A DNA stretch of 36,791 nt from a virus (Duplodnaviria > Heunggongvirae > Uroviricota > Caudoviricetes), in IMG/VR virus record IMGVR_UViG_3300046004_001633, positions 1 through 36,791 of that record; one strand, 5' to 3'. The translations under genes and the position numbers were made by a program. Under the pieces are notes generated by a model. It did not search any database. It saw nothing but the letters and a program-made list of their open reading frames with translations, and was not told where the DNA came from. Shown here one piece after another: positions 2,091-32,574 of this stretch (position 1 is the stretch's first letter; each line of letters opens with the position of its first letter).

Positions 2091-3143
2091 TTAATATGTA
2101 TTTTTTTGCATGAAATATTTCGAACTTAAAAGTTCTGTTAATAATGATTGAGCATCTTTTGCGTATGATGCATTATTTGTGTAGCCGCCTTCTGCTGCAT
2201 AAGTATCGCCGACTTGGATGCCAGACTGAAGTTGACTAATAATTTTTTGTAAAATGGTTAATAGAACATCGCCATGTACCATTGATTCCGATGCTAAATC
2301 GTTTCCTAGTTTTATCTCACCCGGCGTATTTAATATAATTGCTAGAGGAGAATCAATTACAGCAATATCAGTTTTAGCTTTAAGAATAATTCGATCTGCA
2401 ACTCCAATAAATTGCGATTTTGCAAATTGAGATTCATTCGGCAAATAACAACTGATAGGAGTTCTGGTATTGGAATTTCCTAGTAATAACTTAGGAATAC
2501 TTTGAGTACTAGTTAAATATAACGATGCATCATCTGATTCAATATTCTCAACCGCGAATTGTTTGTTCGGATAATTTTTTTGGCCATTTGATATTATAGT
2601 AATAGGATCGCCAGATTGTTTACCTTCCCATGGTCTATCGATACTATATGAATCTGATAAATCGACTGTACTACCGAATCGAATACTATTACCCCAACGA
2701 CCTTCTATTAATGAATCACCTTCGAATGGTTGTAACGGTGATATGATCTTTGGTTGAAATGTTGCGCCTGGTAATGTAGAATCAATTTGTTCTTGAGTTA
2801 ATTGTATTGAAAGTCCAGGAATTGAATTATCATTAATTGATGATTGGATATCTATAGTTGATATATAATACCAGCAGTAGCGCCATTTTAATGATGTAGA
2901 TTCTTGATTAAATGTTTTAACTAATAACACATATTCACCAACTAATGGAATACGTTTCATGTTAATATTAGCTGGCTTAGCAACTATAGGCTTTTTATTA
3001 AAATATGAACTGCAGCCGCGAACTTTAATAGCAAATAGATTATTTGTAGTGCTATTTGGAGATGCCGGATCTATATACTTATAAGTATTTTCATACGATA
3101 AGACCTCAGCAATTTCAAATTGAACCTGATCAGATTGTTCCAT
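2091..3143 (-). CDS. Baseplate hub/central spike protein, gp5 N-terminal-like
   Basis: RIPLVGEYVLL (OB-fold-like) and GDSLIEGRWGNSIRFGST motifs; baseplate gene context; no lysozyme domain seen. Confidence 0.65.
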   Translation of the reverse strand: MEQSDQVQFEIAEVLSYENTYKYIDPASPNSTTNNLFAIKVRGCSSYFNKKPIVAKPANINMKRIPLVGEYVLLVKTFNQESTSLKWRYCWYYISTIDIQSSINDNSIPGLSIQLTQEQIDSTLPGATFQPKIISPLQPFEGDSLIEGRWGNSIRFGSTVDLSDSYSIDRPWEGKQSGDPITIISNGQKNYPNKQFAVENIESDDASLYLTSTQSIPKLLLGNSNTRTPISCYLPNESQFAKSQFIGVADRIILKAKTDIAVIDSPLAIILNTPGEIKLGNDLASESMVHGDVLLTILQKIISQLQSGIQVGDTYAAEGGYTNNASYAKDAQSLLTELLSSKYFMQKNTY

Positions 3144-4279: not shown

Positions 4280-4981
4280 TCAAAAAGGTAGATTTATGAA
4301 GTTTTCTTGTTCATATTCTAAGAATTTAGTTTCATACAATTCTTTAAGTACTTTTATTACACGAGTAATATTCGAAGTTTCTAACCCAGATCTTTCACGA
4401 ATAAAAATATACAAAGCTTTTTTATTAAAGTCTTCTATATTTTCTCGAGACTCAAAAATATGTAATATCGAGTCAGCAACATGAATATCAGTTGGATTAG
4501 TAAAAATAAAATTTAAGTTGTTATAACAATGTTCAATATAAGCATCCATAAATTCCCGAAGTGTTTCTCGCATATCATCATTATGCATTTCGATTCCAAT
4601 ATTTCTTTGTTCATCGATATCTAATTCACCGGTATCTGCTTTAAGTTTTGCATAACCTTTTTGATTCTCAGCAATTAAATAATTAAATGATGTTCTGGTA
4701 TAATAAGAATATGCTTTACCGGCAGTTGGATTAAATTTACGAAGTCTTTCAGTTAAGTAAGTAACTAGATCAGTTTGTAAATCTAAAAATGAACTATCGA
4801 TATAAACCGGTTTCATTTTATTAATTAGATTCTCTGCCATTTTCATGAAAGCTGGATAAATAAATCTTCGGTAAACGCGTTCCCGGAGAACTGGTCTATC
4901 TTCAATCCGATTATAAGCAGAAATTGCCATATCCTGGATCTTTGTGAAATATACATTACTTTTCTTCTTGCGCTTGGCCAT
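4280..4981 (-). CDS. Putative late-transcription sigma factor, T4 gp55-like
   Basis: N-terminal YF motif and KFNPTAGKAYSYYTRTSFNYLI resembling the gp55/sigma region 2 FDP..K..AYFT motif; 233 aa, no region-4 HTH seen; sits among late genes. Confidence 0.6.
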   Translation of the reverse strand: MAKRKKKSNVYFTKIQDMAISAYNRIEDRPVLRERVYRRFIYPAFMKMAENLINKMKPVYIDSSFLDLQTDLVTYLTERLRKFNPTAGKAYSYYTRTSFNYLIAENQKGYAKLKADTGELDIDEQRNIGIEMHNDDMRETLREFMDAYIEHCYNNLNFIFTNPTDIHVADSILHIFESRENIEDFNKKALYIFIRERSGLETSNITRVIKVLKELYETKFLEYEQENFINLPF

Positions 4982-5255
4982 CGAATGTGTCTTTAAGTTC
5001 GGTTATTGTTTGTTGTAATAATTGGAAAGTGGTTCCTGCTTCATCATCTTTTTCAAAAGCTCCTAGTCGATCGATTTCTTGCATTTTAGTATATGAATCT
5101 TCAATTCGAGAATACATATAAGAGTTAGTTAGTTCTAATTCTTCAATATATTCCTGAGCATCTGAAACAGATCCTGCTAGATAATATGCGCGATAACCTA
5201 AATAGGAAGCGGCTCCTGCTAGCAAGACTGATATTAATATAAGTGCTATAATCAT
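4956..5255 (-). CDS. Membrane-anchored coiled-coil hypothetical protein
   Basis: N-terminal hydrophobic helix MIIALILISVLLAGAASYLGY followed by a heptad-like acidic region. Confidence 0.65.
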   Translation of the reverse strand: MIIALILISVLLAGAASYLGYRAYYLAGSVSDAQEYIEELELTNSYMYSRIEDSYTKMQEIDRLGAFEKDDEAGTTFQLLQQTITELKDTFDGQAQEEK

Positions 5256-17964: not shown

Positions 17965-18047
17965 AATTTAAATCTCAAAAATATGTTTGTTCAAAATATA
18001 ATACTTTGAAGTTATATTAATAAATATATACCGTACTAAAATCCAGT

Positions 18048-18080
18048 AAAAAAACCCGGGCTGCGAAAACCCGAGTCTTA
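18048..18080 (-). terminator. Probable intrinsic terminator
   Basis: GACTCGGG...CCCGGGTT hairpin followed by a T run on the minus strand, downstream of 18110-18484. Confidence 0.55.
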
Positions 18081-18109
18081 ACTATACCGTCTAAGGTAGC
18101 AGACGCTCT

Positions 18110-21932: not shown

Positions 21933-22041
21933 AGCTCTTTTTTTAGTTTCGGCAACATTGCCTTTTTATTTATACTTAAAGATAAGGCAAAATACTTTTG
22001 GATCCTAATCTTTTTGCAGAAAAGTTTAAACTTTATTAAAT

Positions 22042-23997: not shown

Positions 23998-24021
23998 GTC
24001 TCTCTTTATTTATTTTTATTA

Positions 24022-25326: not shown

Positions 25327-25438
25327 TAGTCAGGACAGGATTCGAACCTGTAAGATTAAGATTTCCACGGGCAGGTAGATAACCACCTCGTACCTAATCG
25401 CTTTCCAAGCGTTGCGTCTACCATTCCGCCACCTGACT
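25327..25438 (-). tRNA. Atypical tRNA-like RNA, 112 nt (Leu/Ser-type D arm, possible GGA anticodon, oversized variable arm)
   Basis: Acceptor AGTCAGG/CCTGACT + discriminator A; D arm TGGCGGAATGGTAGACGC; T arm ACAGG-TTCGAAT-CCTGT; CGC-TTGGAAA-GCG anticodon arm; 47-nt extra arm; no encoded CCA. Confidence 0.75.
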
Positions 25439-28249: not shown

Positions 28250-28990
28250 TTACAGGTATTGTTCCAACAATTTGATCCCCGGTACCTTAGCCAAATCCAA
28301 TTCAGCCTGACGAACCAACTGTCTTGCTCGCTCTCCGGTAACCTCAAGCTCCTCAGCAATTTGATCCATGCATTGTGCATATTCAAATCCAATACCATAG
28401 AATCGGGTGATTGCCGCCCTTTGCTTAGGCTTTAAGTGATTCAATGCTCTTTGTAGGTCAAATTGGAGATCTTGTGTGTCGCGGTTGCTTTTGCTGGCTT
28501 CTGCTACCAAATAGCGATCCGCATAGGTCTCAGCATTCTCAGAATCTCCTACTGGAGTTGAAATGCTTTTAACTGAGTACTCTTCGGTTGCGGTACGGTG
28601 TGATGGGATACGCACAGTACGACCTAAGTCATTCAAAGCCTTTTGCAACTCAGCACGGATATACCATATTGCAAAGGTAATGAACTTAACTCCGCGGGAT
28701 GCATCAAATCTTTCGGCAGCTTCGAATAAACCAATATTACCGAATCCAATAAGATCCTCTAATTGTACTCCCATTCCTTGATACTGCTTGGCTACTTGAA
28801 CCACAAAGCGAAGGTTGGCTTGCACTAAGGCATTTGTGGCTCTTCGGTCACCTGCTGCTGACTTGATAGCTAACTCTTGTTCTTCCGGCTTTGTAAGCAT
28901 TGCCGTCTTTTTGATCTCCTTAAGATATTGAACGGTGCTTTCCGCGGTTGGTACTATTGCTCCTGTGGTAACATAAATTTTCTTTGACAT
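28250..28990 (-). CDS. Phage-encoded sigma70-family RNA polymerase sigma factor
   Basis: Region 1.2 YLKEI...LT..EE; region 2 ANLRFVVQVAKQYQG...DLIGFGNIGLFEAAERFD..RGVKFITFA; region 4 QIAEELEVTGERARQL. Confidence 0.92.
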   Translation of the reverse strand: MSKKIYVTTGAIVPTAESTVQYLKEIKKTAMLTKPEEQELAIKSAAGDRRATNALVQANLRFVVQVAKQYQGMGVQLEDLIGFGNIGLFEAAERFDASRGVKFITFAIWYIRAELQKALNDLGRTVRIPSHRTATEEYSVKSISTPVGDSENAETYADRYLVAEASKSNRDTQDLQFDLQRALNHLKPKQRAAITRFYGIGFEYAQCMDQIAEELEVTGERARQLVRQAELDLAKVPGIKLLEQYL

Positions 28991-30756: not shown

Positions 30757-30906
30757 TCAATATTTGTTTCGAATAATTTTAATGGTTTCTGTGACGCCGG
30801 TTGCACATTTACGGATTTCAACATAACCCAATTTAATATCAGTCACGCACTCAATTTTACCTTCTTTAATTTGTTGCTCCACAGTTCTTACTTTTAATCT
30901 TCTCAT
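30757..30906 (-). CDS. Hypothetical early protein (49 aa)
   Basis: Not in the ORF track. MRRLKVRTVEQQIKEGKIECVTDIKLGYVEIRKCATGVTETIKIIRNKY; AAAAAGAGAGACG leader and cassette. Confidence 0.7.
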   Translation of the reverse strand: MRRLKVRTVEQQIKEGKIECVTDIKLGYVEIRKCATGVTETIKIIRNKY

Positions 30907-30993
30907 CGTCTCTCTTTTTAATTTTAATAAAGATAAGCATTTTTATTTTCGGATCCTAATCTTTTTGCAACTTTGTTTGAATTATTTTTCAGT

Positions 30994-31019
30994 AAAAAAG
31001 CGCCACCCGGAGATGACGC
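30994..31019 (-). terminator. Intrinsic terminator
   Basis: GCGTCATC-TCCG-GGTGGCGC followed by T6. Confidence 0.75.
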
Positions 31020-31288
31020 CTACCCTTCTAGAAGAGAGAGAAAAACTAGAAGACTTACCTAACCATATCGCGGTCATACCGCACAGCCTCACTCTGCCTA
31101 CTCGCCGTCCGTGCCTGAGCATTCTCGGAACCCTGGAGCCTGACTGGAGGATCTATATATATACAATTAAGAGCCGGAGGTGTTAGGCATCAACTGCGCT
31201 CAAGCTTCTGAGGCCCTCTGGCATATGTTGCTTGTGGTTGCCGGCTCTAGATAATTGGCACCATCATCCCTAATGGCCTTCTTATTAC
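30994..31288 (-). ncRNA. Candidate structured non-coding RNA (~295 nt)
   Basis: Lies between a promoter (TTGGAT-N17-TATTAT, ~31295-31323) and a terminator; no credible ORF; ~53% G+C over 31081-31260 by my count; stems AGAGCCGG/CCGGCTCT and CTTCTAG/CTAGAAG. Confidence 0.5.
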
Positions 31289-31395
31289 ACTTATATAATA
31301 AGAAATATACTGCTAGGATCCAACCAAATGCGCGTGAATGTTTACTCCGTATAGCTAGCGAACCGAATGAATCGCACCTAAAAGTGCGGTTTGTT

Positions 31396-31821
31396 CTAAA
31401 AATAGACTAGGCATAAACCGGTATATTGGTCTAAAAATAGCCTAAAAGTACCGGATCCTAGCAGTATCCTTCTAAAAATAGACTAGATCCTTCTAAAAAT
31501 AGAACCCTCAAATATACCATATATACAGCAAACCGTCTATATATACACGATAGACCCGATCCTTCTAAAAATAACGTTACTCTGTATAGCTATAGAACCG
31601 ATAGATCTTTCTAAAAATAGAATGCATATTATGCGCATATTGGTCTAAAAATAGAATCATCCTGCAGGTACCTGGTGACTCGGCGTCCTGGTATTTTCGT
31701 CTAAAAATAGAATGGGGAGGGGGAGGTGGTCTTCTAAAAATAGACTAGATCCTTCTAAAAATAGAATATCCTTCTAAAAATAGGATTACCGGATAAGTGC
31801 TTCTAAGCCGTCTAAAAATAG
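31396..31821 (+). repeat. Iteron-like repeats CTAAAAATAG x11 (+1 variant)
   Basis: Exact copies at 31396, 31431, 31472, 31493, 31611, 31645, 31701, 31734, 31755, 31774, 31812; CTAAAAATAA at 31565; no ORF. Confidence 0.9.
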
Positions 31822-32092
31822 AATCTGGTATCTAGGCATTGCTGGAATGGAGATATAGAAGGTACGCCCCCTTAAAACTAATAGAAGGGCTAGGAATATA
31901 CTTAACCTAGCCTACCTCCTCCTTCTAGACACTCAATCTGCGTACACATCTCAGGCAATGACACGGAAAAATACTGGAATCCATAGGGATCATCTATGCT
32001 GCGTCTTATTTCCATAGACACGGGCCCTGTGGGGCTATTGGTATTACTATCGTTATGCTTATTATTCCTGTTGCTATGTTATGCATTTGCAT

Positions 32093-32269
32093 TTATTTTA
32101 ATTTATTACATTTTGAACAATATCTAAAGGGTGGTATTCTACTCCAACCAAATGTTTTATATATCCAATTATGTTGACATGACGATTTTCTAACATCAGA
32201 TATATTCAATTGTTTTTCATATTCTTGAACTATCTGCTTTGCTTTTAAGTAATCTTCTTTTTTTATCAT
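32093..32269 (-). CDS. Hypothetical protein (58 aa) with Zn-binding-like motif
   Basis: Not in the ORF track. MIKKEDYLKAKQIVQEYEKQL...CQHNW...YCSKCNKLK. Confidence 0.65.
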   Translation of the reverse strand: MIKKEDYLKAKQIVQEYEKQLNISDVRKSSCQHNWIYKTFGWSRIPPFRYCSKCNKLK

Positions 32270-32316
32270 TTGTATTTTTATTTAGAAGCTTATCCGTAAA
32301 CTGCTAAGTCTTCTAG

Positions 32317-32574
32317 TTAGTTAGGAGTTGTGTTAAATGTTTCGTTGTAGTAATCAATTGCATCTTCTTTATCTTCTTTATCAGAAGTTGAATCAAAACC
32401 AAGTGGTGTTAATGATTCTTCTATAATATGCAATACAATTAATTGTCCTTCATGATAGGATTTTATTATCTGCTGCTTCTCCATTTCTTTGGCTGCTTCT
32501 AAAATATTACTTGGTAATGAGTAATCATTTTGCTTCCAAAGTGTTTCATATAACCATTCTATTGCTGTTGTCAT
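32317..32574 (-). CDS. Hypothetical phage protein (TAVEWL / EMEKQQI / YYNETF type)
   Basis: Shares EMEKQQI...YYNETF with 32766-33050. Confidence 0.7.
   Translation of the reverse strand: MTTAIEWLYETLWKQNDYSLPSNILEAAKEMEKQQIIKSYHEGQLIVLHIIEESLTPLGFDSTSDKEDKEDAIDYYNETFNTTPN

Follow-up and report, generated by a model that had tools for sequence, protein, structure and literature searches.

The RNA unit and its surroundings

The stretch of DNA analysed here (the window, 36,791 nt) represents the first 36.8 kb of a linear virus contig of 100,791 bp with a GC content of 35%, on which the minus strand carries nearly all genes. The contig encodes GroEL, DNA polymerase, ribonucleotide reductase (RNR), thymidylate synthase, an ATP-dependent ligase and 17 tRNAs. 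DNA of the phage is present in 24 public runs, every one of them (24/24) a lake-water DNA metagenome, and it looks like the genome of a large, T4-like and virulent lake-water phage that is uncultured. The phage GenBank collection held no match for the DNA or for the neighbouring 710-aa protein. A crAss-like identity, which we considered from the genome size and from a paper on long non-coding early RNAs of phi14:2, was ruled out, as a giant RNA polymerase is absent and GroEL, DNA polymerase, RNR and a T4-like layout are present. The sequence ahead of the start codons is A-rich and devoid of GGAGG. Ribosomes of the Bacteroidota do not employ Shine-Dalgarno pairing, and leader structure together with upstream A residues tunes initiation (PMC6847099, PMC7797042). 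From the A-rich leaders without GGAGG we infer that the host belongs to the Bacteroidota, and it very probably makes no use of Shine-Dalgarno pairing.

At the head of the early gene array, a non-coding RNA of ~295 nt is predicted on the minus strand (30994..31288). Its promoter on the same strand (31295..31323) consists of a -35 element TTGGAT (31323-31318), a 17-nt spacer and a -10 element TATTAT (31300-31295), and this position places the predicted transcription start near 31288. The RNA would extend to the end of the U tract of an intrinsic-terminator-like hairpin (30994..31021, minus strand), the stem of which (31021-30998) comprises 10 pairs, encloses a 4-nt loop and is followed by U6; the GC-rich stem, short loop and U tract that define an intrinsic terminator are all found here. 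The sequence-only reading had described a promoter-to-terminator unit without a credible ORF, and its coordinates hold throughout when they are read on the minus strand. Its estimate of ~53% GC for the unit has to be corrected to 50.5%, as compared to 35.9% for the window. Two ORFs overlap the unit, one of 73 aa (plus strand) and one of 46 aa (minus strand), and both run through the hairpins. Neither found a match in Pfam, and their sequence is not conserved in relatives. The unit is probably the gene for a stable, structured minus-strand RNA of the predicted length.

The promoter of the unit belongs to a second class with the motif GGTTGGAT-N17-TTTCTTATWATA, which is also found ahead of the ligase, endonuclease and GroEL-region genes and of the tRNA cluster. 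At the tRNA cluster, the 18 nt that follow the promoter are nearly identical to the first 18 nt of the RNA. The early array is marked by 14 copies of another motif, TTAGGATCC-N13-CTTATCTTTA, between positions 21986 and 30937, such that each of the predicted targets has its own promoter. The first early promoter module (AAACAAAGTT .. TTAGGATCC-N13-CTTATCTTTA; 30928..30988, minus strand) begins about 10 nt after the terminator of the RNA. One of the early-array genes (28250-28990, minus strand), which is preceded by a AAGAGAGA leader, encodes a sigma70-family protein with Pfam regions 1.2, 2 and 4, and this protein may read the TTGGAT-N17-TATTAT class that drives the RNA.

Several further elements were observed around the unit. 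A 9-bp inverted repeat, TTCTTATTA-N8-TAATAAGAA (31279-31304), spans the -10 box together with the predicted RNA start, and a near-copy lies at the promoter of the tRNA cluster (genome about 40960-40995; L001 about 4960-4995); the repeat could be an operator. Just upstream of the RNA promoter, a gene-free stretch of ~700 bp harbors twelve CTATTTTTAGA iterons (31395-31821, minus strand). This cluster counts 5-15 copies in relatives and is absent from G006, a complete but more distant genome. Farther upstream, after an 85-aa ORF, a hairpin-like element (32273-32326, minus strand; AGAAG..CUUCU around CAGUUUACGGAUAAG) is 91-93% identical in L005, L006 and L013 despite diverged flanks. Within the tRNA cluster, about 500 nt are non-coding (L001 4270-4785, minus strand; genome about 40270-40785) and gave no Rfam match.

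When the window was searched against Rfam 15 at the gathering threshold, the only match was a tRNA-like gene (25327-25438, minus strand). It scores 42 bits against the Rfam tRNA model, carries an insertion of ~43 nt after the anticodon arm and is not called by ARAGORN. Similar tRNA-like genes follow the first early gene in L008 and L011, and another one is located at L001 4132-4237. For the region 30800-32300, lowering the stringency to E values of up to 10 returned chance-level hits only (mir-14 with 17.7 bits against a threshold of 53, and fluoride with 12 bits).

Folding of the unit gave different results for its parts. The 3' 73 nt, comprising the loop hairpin and the terminator, are exceptionally stable (z = -3.65; 0/200 shuffles as stable) and leave the loop unpaired. 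The complete 295 nt are not unusually stable in comparison with shuffled sequences (z = -0.5), which counts against the pairing model developed below. The 3' part folds with -27.8 kcal/mol in the sense and -12.7 kcal/mol in the antisense orientation, and this advantage of 15 kcal/mol for the sense strand is due to G-U pairs.

Conserved modules in related phages

Three baits, none of which includes the loop, served to retrieve related phages: the ligase, located 3.6 kb from the RNA unit; a conserved 23-nt anchor about 60 nt upstream of the RNA promoter, which was searched in viral and metagenome collections with less than one chance match expected; and the early AAA ATPase. The anchor yielded 36 distinct units and the ATPase a dozen further ones, with synteny in about 30 relatives. 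The body of the RNA could not be aligned by blastn even where the ligases were 87-89% identical. The architecture, on the other hand, is constant and consists of the promoter, a variable body, one or two hairpins with a UCUCUCUU loop, a terminator or U run, and the first early promoter. The TTGGAT-type promoter occupies the same position in every related unit. In a single variant contig (four runs compared with 30900-31400), positions 30994-31133 are identical, and 13 differing sites plus indels lie further 5', which is not enough variation to be informative.

The hairpin that presents the CU-rich loop (module M2; 31025..31052, minus strand) has 7-8 bp in the window. As proposed from the sequence before, CTTCTAG (31025-31031) pairs with CTAGAAG (31046-31052), and the 14-nt loop at 31045-31032 reads UUUUUCUCUCUCUU in the sense of the RNA. 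The hairpin forms with an unpaired loop in both MFE and centroid folds. Just 5' of it lies a conserved single-stranded linker, GUUAGGUAAG (31054..31063, minus strand), which is present in the window and in L005, L006, L102, L107, L110 and L123. A short GCGGT/ACCGC helix (31070-31074 with 31078-31082), which had also been pointed out, does exist in the window and is retained in the nearest relative only.

Loss of the loop in relatives that keep the leader had been set beforehand as a refuting outcome; in such relatives the loop is kept while its stems change. Every complete unit contains the loop core UCUCUCUU on one or two hairpins, and the core is invariant. It is carried by at least 15 different stems that are unrelated between lineages, examples being UCUUCUAG, CGAUCGGGU, GAACCCGGG, CCUGG, GGCCAGAAUGAG, GCAGGG, GGAUCCCGGG, UUGGGUGCUGG and GGCAUUAGG. 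Loop length varies between 12 and 17 nt, and in folds of single sequences the CU tract nearly always comes to lie in the loop of a hairpin. Two copies of the loop motif occur in the L008 type, L141 and L147, and in L088 two motifs lie within one loop. No conserved partner for the loop was found within the RNA when the related units were compared. As the loops differ in length, a one-column MAFFT alignment of the CU hairpins was unsuitable and a covariance model was used instead. In the resulting alignment (GGG-closed subset), which is fitted to the model and therefore leans towards structure, pairing amounts to 94.7% of the cells, and both sides have changed in 5 of 10 pairs; the covariation score was reached by 0/500 shuffles, and slid controls were 27-69% paired. 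The specificity of the model is such that the hairpin of the window itself escapes it, and one of its matches, an ordinary terminator (18047-18081), was false. A flank-shuffle control over eight stem classes yielded a combined p = 6e-6. The strand-specific fold through G-U pairs was found for the window and five other stem classes but not for the CCCGGG class.

A second module, M1 (31170..31248, minus strand), is closed by the helix P1 (31248-31241 with 31177-31170) and consists of an internal loop around a variable inner hairpin. P1 had been noted as an 8-bp long-range stem; it is present and covaries as a helix. In an alignment of 11 units (A1), P1 occurs in five different sequences, 7 of its 8 pairs are compensatory with both sides changed, and 95.5% of the cells are paired, a value that was reached by 0/500 shuffles and that compares with 39-47% for slid controls. 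The internal loop is built from the conserved strands YAACCACAAG and CUAACACCU. These strands are A/C-rich (AACCACA and AACACCU), and no known motif was recognised in them. Anti-Shine-Dalgarno mimicry by CACCUCC in M1 was considered and rejected, as conservation is limited to AACACCU and the CC after it forms part of P1. M1 was also observed at L005 7741-7790 and L086 5459-5521 (minus strand).

The remainder of the body differs widely between phages. A tRNA-Met(CAT) gene is inserted between M1 and the CU hairpin in L088 (3349-3422, plus strand), L113 and L117, a GNRA-capped hairpin module occurs in the units of L006 and the L008 group, and ORFs for hydrophobic peptides of 26-34 aa lie in the unit body of the L008 group and L086. 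The hairpin module, as observed at L006 13625-13680, L011 6435-6480 and L137 about 3000-3035, is mobile, has ~40 nt and carries a GAAA tetraloop (CCGGG..GCGCUCGAAAGACGC..CCCGG); it is absent from the window. The peptides come singly or in pairs, the first almost leaderless (L011 6238-6440, L008 10135-10320 and the L086 unit), and the unit of the window contains no such 26-34-aa ORF. The variety of modules (M1, GNRA hairpin, tRNA, tiny ORFs) indicates that the body is a swap zone between two constant parts, the promoter and the CU-loop hairpin, and the unit is a stable-RNA locus.

This composition has to be weighed against the possibility that the hairpins are mere 3' end elements (a terminator, an insulator or an exonuclease block) of a small operon for stable RNAs or peptides, with no target in trans. 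A swap zone that takes up M1, the GNRA hairpin, tRNAs or hydrophobic ORFs would suit such an operon, as would the proximity of the first early promoter, about 10 nt past the terminator. Furthermore, the CU hairpin is followed directly by a U run in the L126, L132, L134, L011 and L147 types; in several lineages it is itself the sole terminator, and hence part of its conservation could serve termination. In the window, however, the CU hairpin has its 14-nt loop and no U tract of its own, and a separate terminator follows it. Terminator loops normally measure 3-8 nt and are free to vary, whereas here an invariant sequence in a loop of 12-17 nt is maintained while stems are replaced wholesale. We therefore regard a pure 3' end function as quite unlikely. 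Since the loop is kept on differing stems and P1 covaries, the RNA appears real and structured, and we conclude with high confidence that the locus specifies a genuine, conserved, structured RNA element of the sense strand.

Complementarity between the loop and the early leaders

The leader motif AAGAGAGA occurs 14 times in the window compared to 1.6 expected occurrences, and 0/100 shuffles reached this number. Of these, 13 lie on the sense strand; the remaining one, on the plus strand, is the loop itself. All but one of the sense-strand copies (12/13) are located -1 to 4 nt before the ATG of an ORF of 49-316 aa; the exception (1/13) is internal to an ORF. The nearest predicted target is the first early gene, with its leader at 30909..30916 (minus strand) and its ATG at 30906. 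The other leaders before early-gene ATGs, all on the minus strand, lie at 30676-83, 30212-19, 29910-17, 29563-70, 29228-35 and 28992-99 and, further on, at 27012-19, 26736-43, 26459-66, 24753-60 and 23999-24006. Across the whole 100.8-kb contig, only one further sense-strand AAGAGAGA is found beyond the early array. This sole copy (genome 40093-40100) adjoins the tRNA-like gene at L001 4132-4237 and lies about 170 nt downstream of the non-coding stretch in the tRNA cluster.

The leader is kept in all related phages as an A-rich sequence followed by GAGAG(A), about 2 nt and the ATG. The eight invariant letters of the loop, UCUCUCUU(A), are the exact complement of the eight invariant letters of the leader, AAGAGAGA. 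Antiparallel pairing of the loop with the leaders had been suggested for about 14 early genes, and the complementarity proved specific to the early class: the early genes (n=14) have a mean Watson-Crick run of 7.4 nt and a mean predicted duplex of -9.9 kcal/mol, as opposed to 4.3 nt and -2.0 kcal/mol for genes of the second promoter class (n=15). For 13 of 14 early leaders the predicted duplex with the loop lies between -8.4 and -12.9 kcal/mol. Second-class leaders look similar to the early tag, except that their (GA)n run is broken.

Other properties of the duplexes speak against the pairing model. They are short and of low complexity, and a CU loop pairs with any purine run. In 100 kb, 37 sense-strand windows reach -10.5 kcal/mol, only about 14 of which are early leaders, and after mononucleotide (composition-preserving) shuffling the loop still attains the real value in 0-9% of the trials. 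Duplex energy alone is a weak discriminator. When loops and leaders of different phages were combined in an energy matrix of own versus foreign pairs, no clear diagonal emerged except for L086 and L008.

At a finer scale, loops that end with CUCUUAU(U/C)U go along with 25-80% AAUAAGAG-type leaders (L086, L126, L132, L137, L141 and L147), and the combination of such loops with AAUAAGAG tags allows pairing over as many as 10 nt. This loop ending is missing from the window and L135, in which AAUAAGAG-type leaders account for 0/14 and 1/15, respectively. Exceptions are the L008 and L100 types, which combine a UUAU-type loop with few matching leaders, and L128, in which the situation is reversed. 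Such fine-scale co-variation between loop and leader is suggestive only. In G006, a complete 197-kb relative with 60% ATPase identity, the leaders read AAUAAAAAGAAAU; this genome contains neither a GAGAG tag nor a CU-loop hairpin, and its sole YYCTCTCTT match is a tRNA acceptor stem. The co-absence of leader and loop relies on this one complete genome. In G007 (55% complete), with AAAUUAAGAGAU leaders, the only sense-strand complement lies inside a long ORF, and the more distant G001-G005, which were found via the ligase, have no early promoter motif.

The loop had also been noted to match the leader base for base in parallel orientation, as the third strand of a triplex would. This interpretation gained no support. 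The two orientations give matches of about equal length because the tract is an (AG)n repeat, the loops of most relatives end with UUAUU and have antiparallel Watson-Crick runs that are as long as the parallel ones or longer, and a single-stranded leader offers no target for a triplex. The same data bear on the idea that the tract acts in the DNA, as a cruciform or triplex belonging to the neighbouring iteron region and serving as an origin, packaging site or operator. The twelve CTATTTTTAGA iterons are only 100-530 bp upstream, and in the window taken alone the parallel match to the leaders indeed exceeds the antiparallel one (9.8 vs 7.4). Most relatives, however, do not follow the window in this respect, and their leaders interrupt the purine run with U. 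Moreover, the fold is strand-specific through its G-U pairs, the unit possesses a promoter and a terminator of its own and, in a relative, it even accommodates a tRNA. Hence, a role at the DNA level is extremely improbable.

Alternatively, the CU loop could be the binding site of a protein, with the RNA serving as a decoy, sponge or scaffold and the complementarity to the leaders being indirect or coincidental. Candidates would be host or phage proteins that bind single-stranded pyrimidines, for instance ribosomal protein S1, proteins of the RRM or KH type, or a translational regulator of the phage. A loop sequence that is conserved on variable stems and often present in two copies corresponds to the layout of protein-titrating RNAs, and the weak diagonal in the comparison of own and foreign duplexes fits a partner protein that stays constant. 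On the other hand, no candidate binding protein was identified, the 8 invariant nt of the loop and those of the leader are exactly complementary, and the match is specific to the early class, with the relative that does not have the leader being devoid of the loop as well. Titration of a protein is in our view unlikely, and the following considerations are based on pairing between the loop and the leaders.

A possible role in early gene control

The only sequence-conserved single-stranded part of the RNA that would act as a seed is the CU-rich loop of the penultimate hairpin. It would form an antiparallel duplex of 7-9 nt (UCUCUCUU with AAGAGAGA) with the purine tag that early mRNAs carry at -10 to -2 of their start codons. 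Hosts without Shine-Dalgarno pairing depend for initiation on a leader that is A-rich and unstructured (PMC6847099), and a duplex at -10 to -2 would thus keep the 30S subunit off. As a consequence, the whole early class would be damped or shut off together at the level of translation, and the early mRNAs would perhaps become exposed to double-strand RNases. Genes of the second class would escape, as their leaders break the (GA)n run. Given that a sigma70-family gene resides in the early array and that the RNA has a promoter of the non-early type, the RNA may appear only after the early proteins have been made, and such a late onset would establish a delayed negative loop. We infer that the RNA is transcribed and pairs in the cell, as well as when it acts and with which sign. 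Repression of early-leader translation by antiparallel loop pairing is the most economical explanation, and we judge the chances of its being correct as evenly balanced. An argument against the pairing model is that the product of a single RNA gene would need to titrate 13 or more mRNA species.

The sign of the effect could also be the opposite, i.e. the RNA could pair with the early leaders and activate them by stabilising the very short 5' UTRs, by protecting them from a nuclease or by recruiting ribosomes. Activation draws on the same complementarity of loop and leader, and the position of the unit directly at the head of the early array would be appropriate. The pairing site at -10 to -2, however, lies inside the footprint of the ribosome, structure near the start reduces initiation in Bacteroidia (PMC6847099), and the RNA has a promoter of the non-early type. 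We consider an activating role very unlikely and retain repression as the preferred reading.

Trans-acting base-pairing sRNAs generally combine a promoter and an intrinsic terminator without an ORF, an unpaired conserved seed on a conserved fold, and complementarity of the seed to the initiation regions of defined targets above background. All of these were found for the unit described here, the last one against a purine-rich background that is substantial. Closest in layout are the Cuckoo RNAs (RSs0680, CcsR) of Alphaproteobacteria, in which the same loop motif with anti-Shine-Dalgarno-like character is presented on highly variable stems (PMC4615179). Both groups share one to several hairpins, a pyrimidine motif common to their loops, compensatory changes in the stems and complementarity to initiation regions. 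Nevertheless, sequence or Rfam relationships do not exist: Cuckoo RNAs carry CCUCCUCCC in 2-4 adjacent hairpins, whereas the core here is UCUCUCUU and the loops read UUUCUCUCUCUU(AUU) on 1-2 hairpins. Furthermore, the presumed target here is a private, non-Shine-Dalgarno tag of a single temporal class of phage genes, and the RNA is borne by a phage with a host that is probably a member of the Bacteroidota and contains the additional covarying internal-loop module M1.

In Staphylococcus aureus, RsaE, other Rsa RNAs and RNAIII use unpaired UCCC loops that bind ribosome-binding regions and block formation of the initiation complex (PMC2790875). A conserved unpaired C/U-rich motif in a hairpin loop that faces the ribosome-binding region of many mRNAs is a common feature, although the loop in the window contains no UCCC. 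The motifs of the Rsa RNAs are directed against the universal Shine-Dalgarno sequence of host mRNAs and their function has been tested, while the case made here is built on sequence; the tag, a purine-rich sequence directly adjoining the ATG, is restricted to about 13 early genes of the phage.

Among phage RNAs, the closest is the c4 antisense RNA of phages P1 and P7, the loops of which, as summarised in PMC12197685, pair around the ribosome-binding site of a phage mRNA and block its translation. Like c4, the RNA described here is phage-encoded, is predicted to act in trans and exposes a loop complementary to the surroundings of ribosome-binding sites. c4 controls a single operon (icd-ant) for immunity of a temperate phage and is processed from the leader of that very operon. 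The predicted RNA, in contrast, is a unit with a promoter and a terminator of its own, and the genes that it would address form a whole class in a large, T4-like phage of virulent appearance, each transcribed from a separate promoter. A 2025 review of phage-derived sRNAs contains no RNA that is aimed at a whole early class.

Phage T4 achieves class-wide control with proteins: the endoribonuclease RegB cuts GGAG, and the translational repressor RegA binds near the AUG. The resemblance lies in post-transcriptional shut-off of early mRNAs as a class via a short motif in the initiation region, the difference in the proposed effector, which here would be an RNA and not a protein. It is conceivable, though we advance it only tentatively, that large phages of hosts without Shine-Dalgarno pairing provide their early mRNAs with a private purine tag adjacent to the start codon and silence the whole early class by a dedicated master RNA, the loop of which recognises the tag and the synthesis of which is switched on by a sigma factor of the phage. 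Such a system would be the RNA counterpart of T4 RegA/RegB. To our knowledge, very few regulatory RNAs are known from the phylum Bacteroidota. If the pairing is real, a single small gene would control a whole temporal class of phage genes after transcription, and it would do so in a phylum that initiates translation without Shine-Dalgarno pairing; it would also explain the odd purine tag that abuts the ATG in about 13 separately promoted early genes. Regardless of its function, the RNA represents a new family with two covarying modules that is absent from Rfam and common in freshwater phages, and the stable-RNA locus in which it sits also acquires tRNAs and very small ORFs for hydrophobic peptides.
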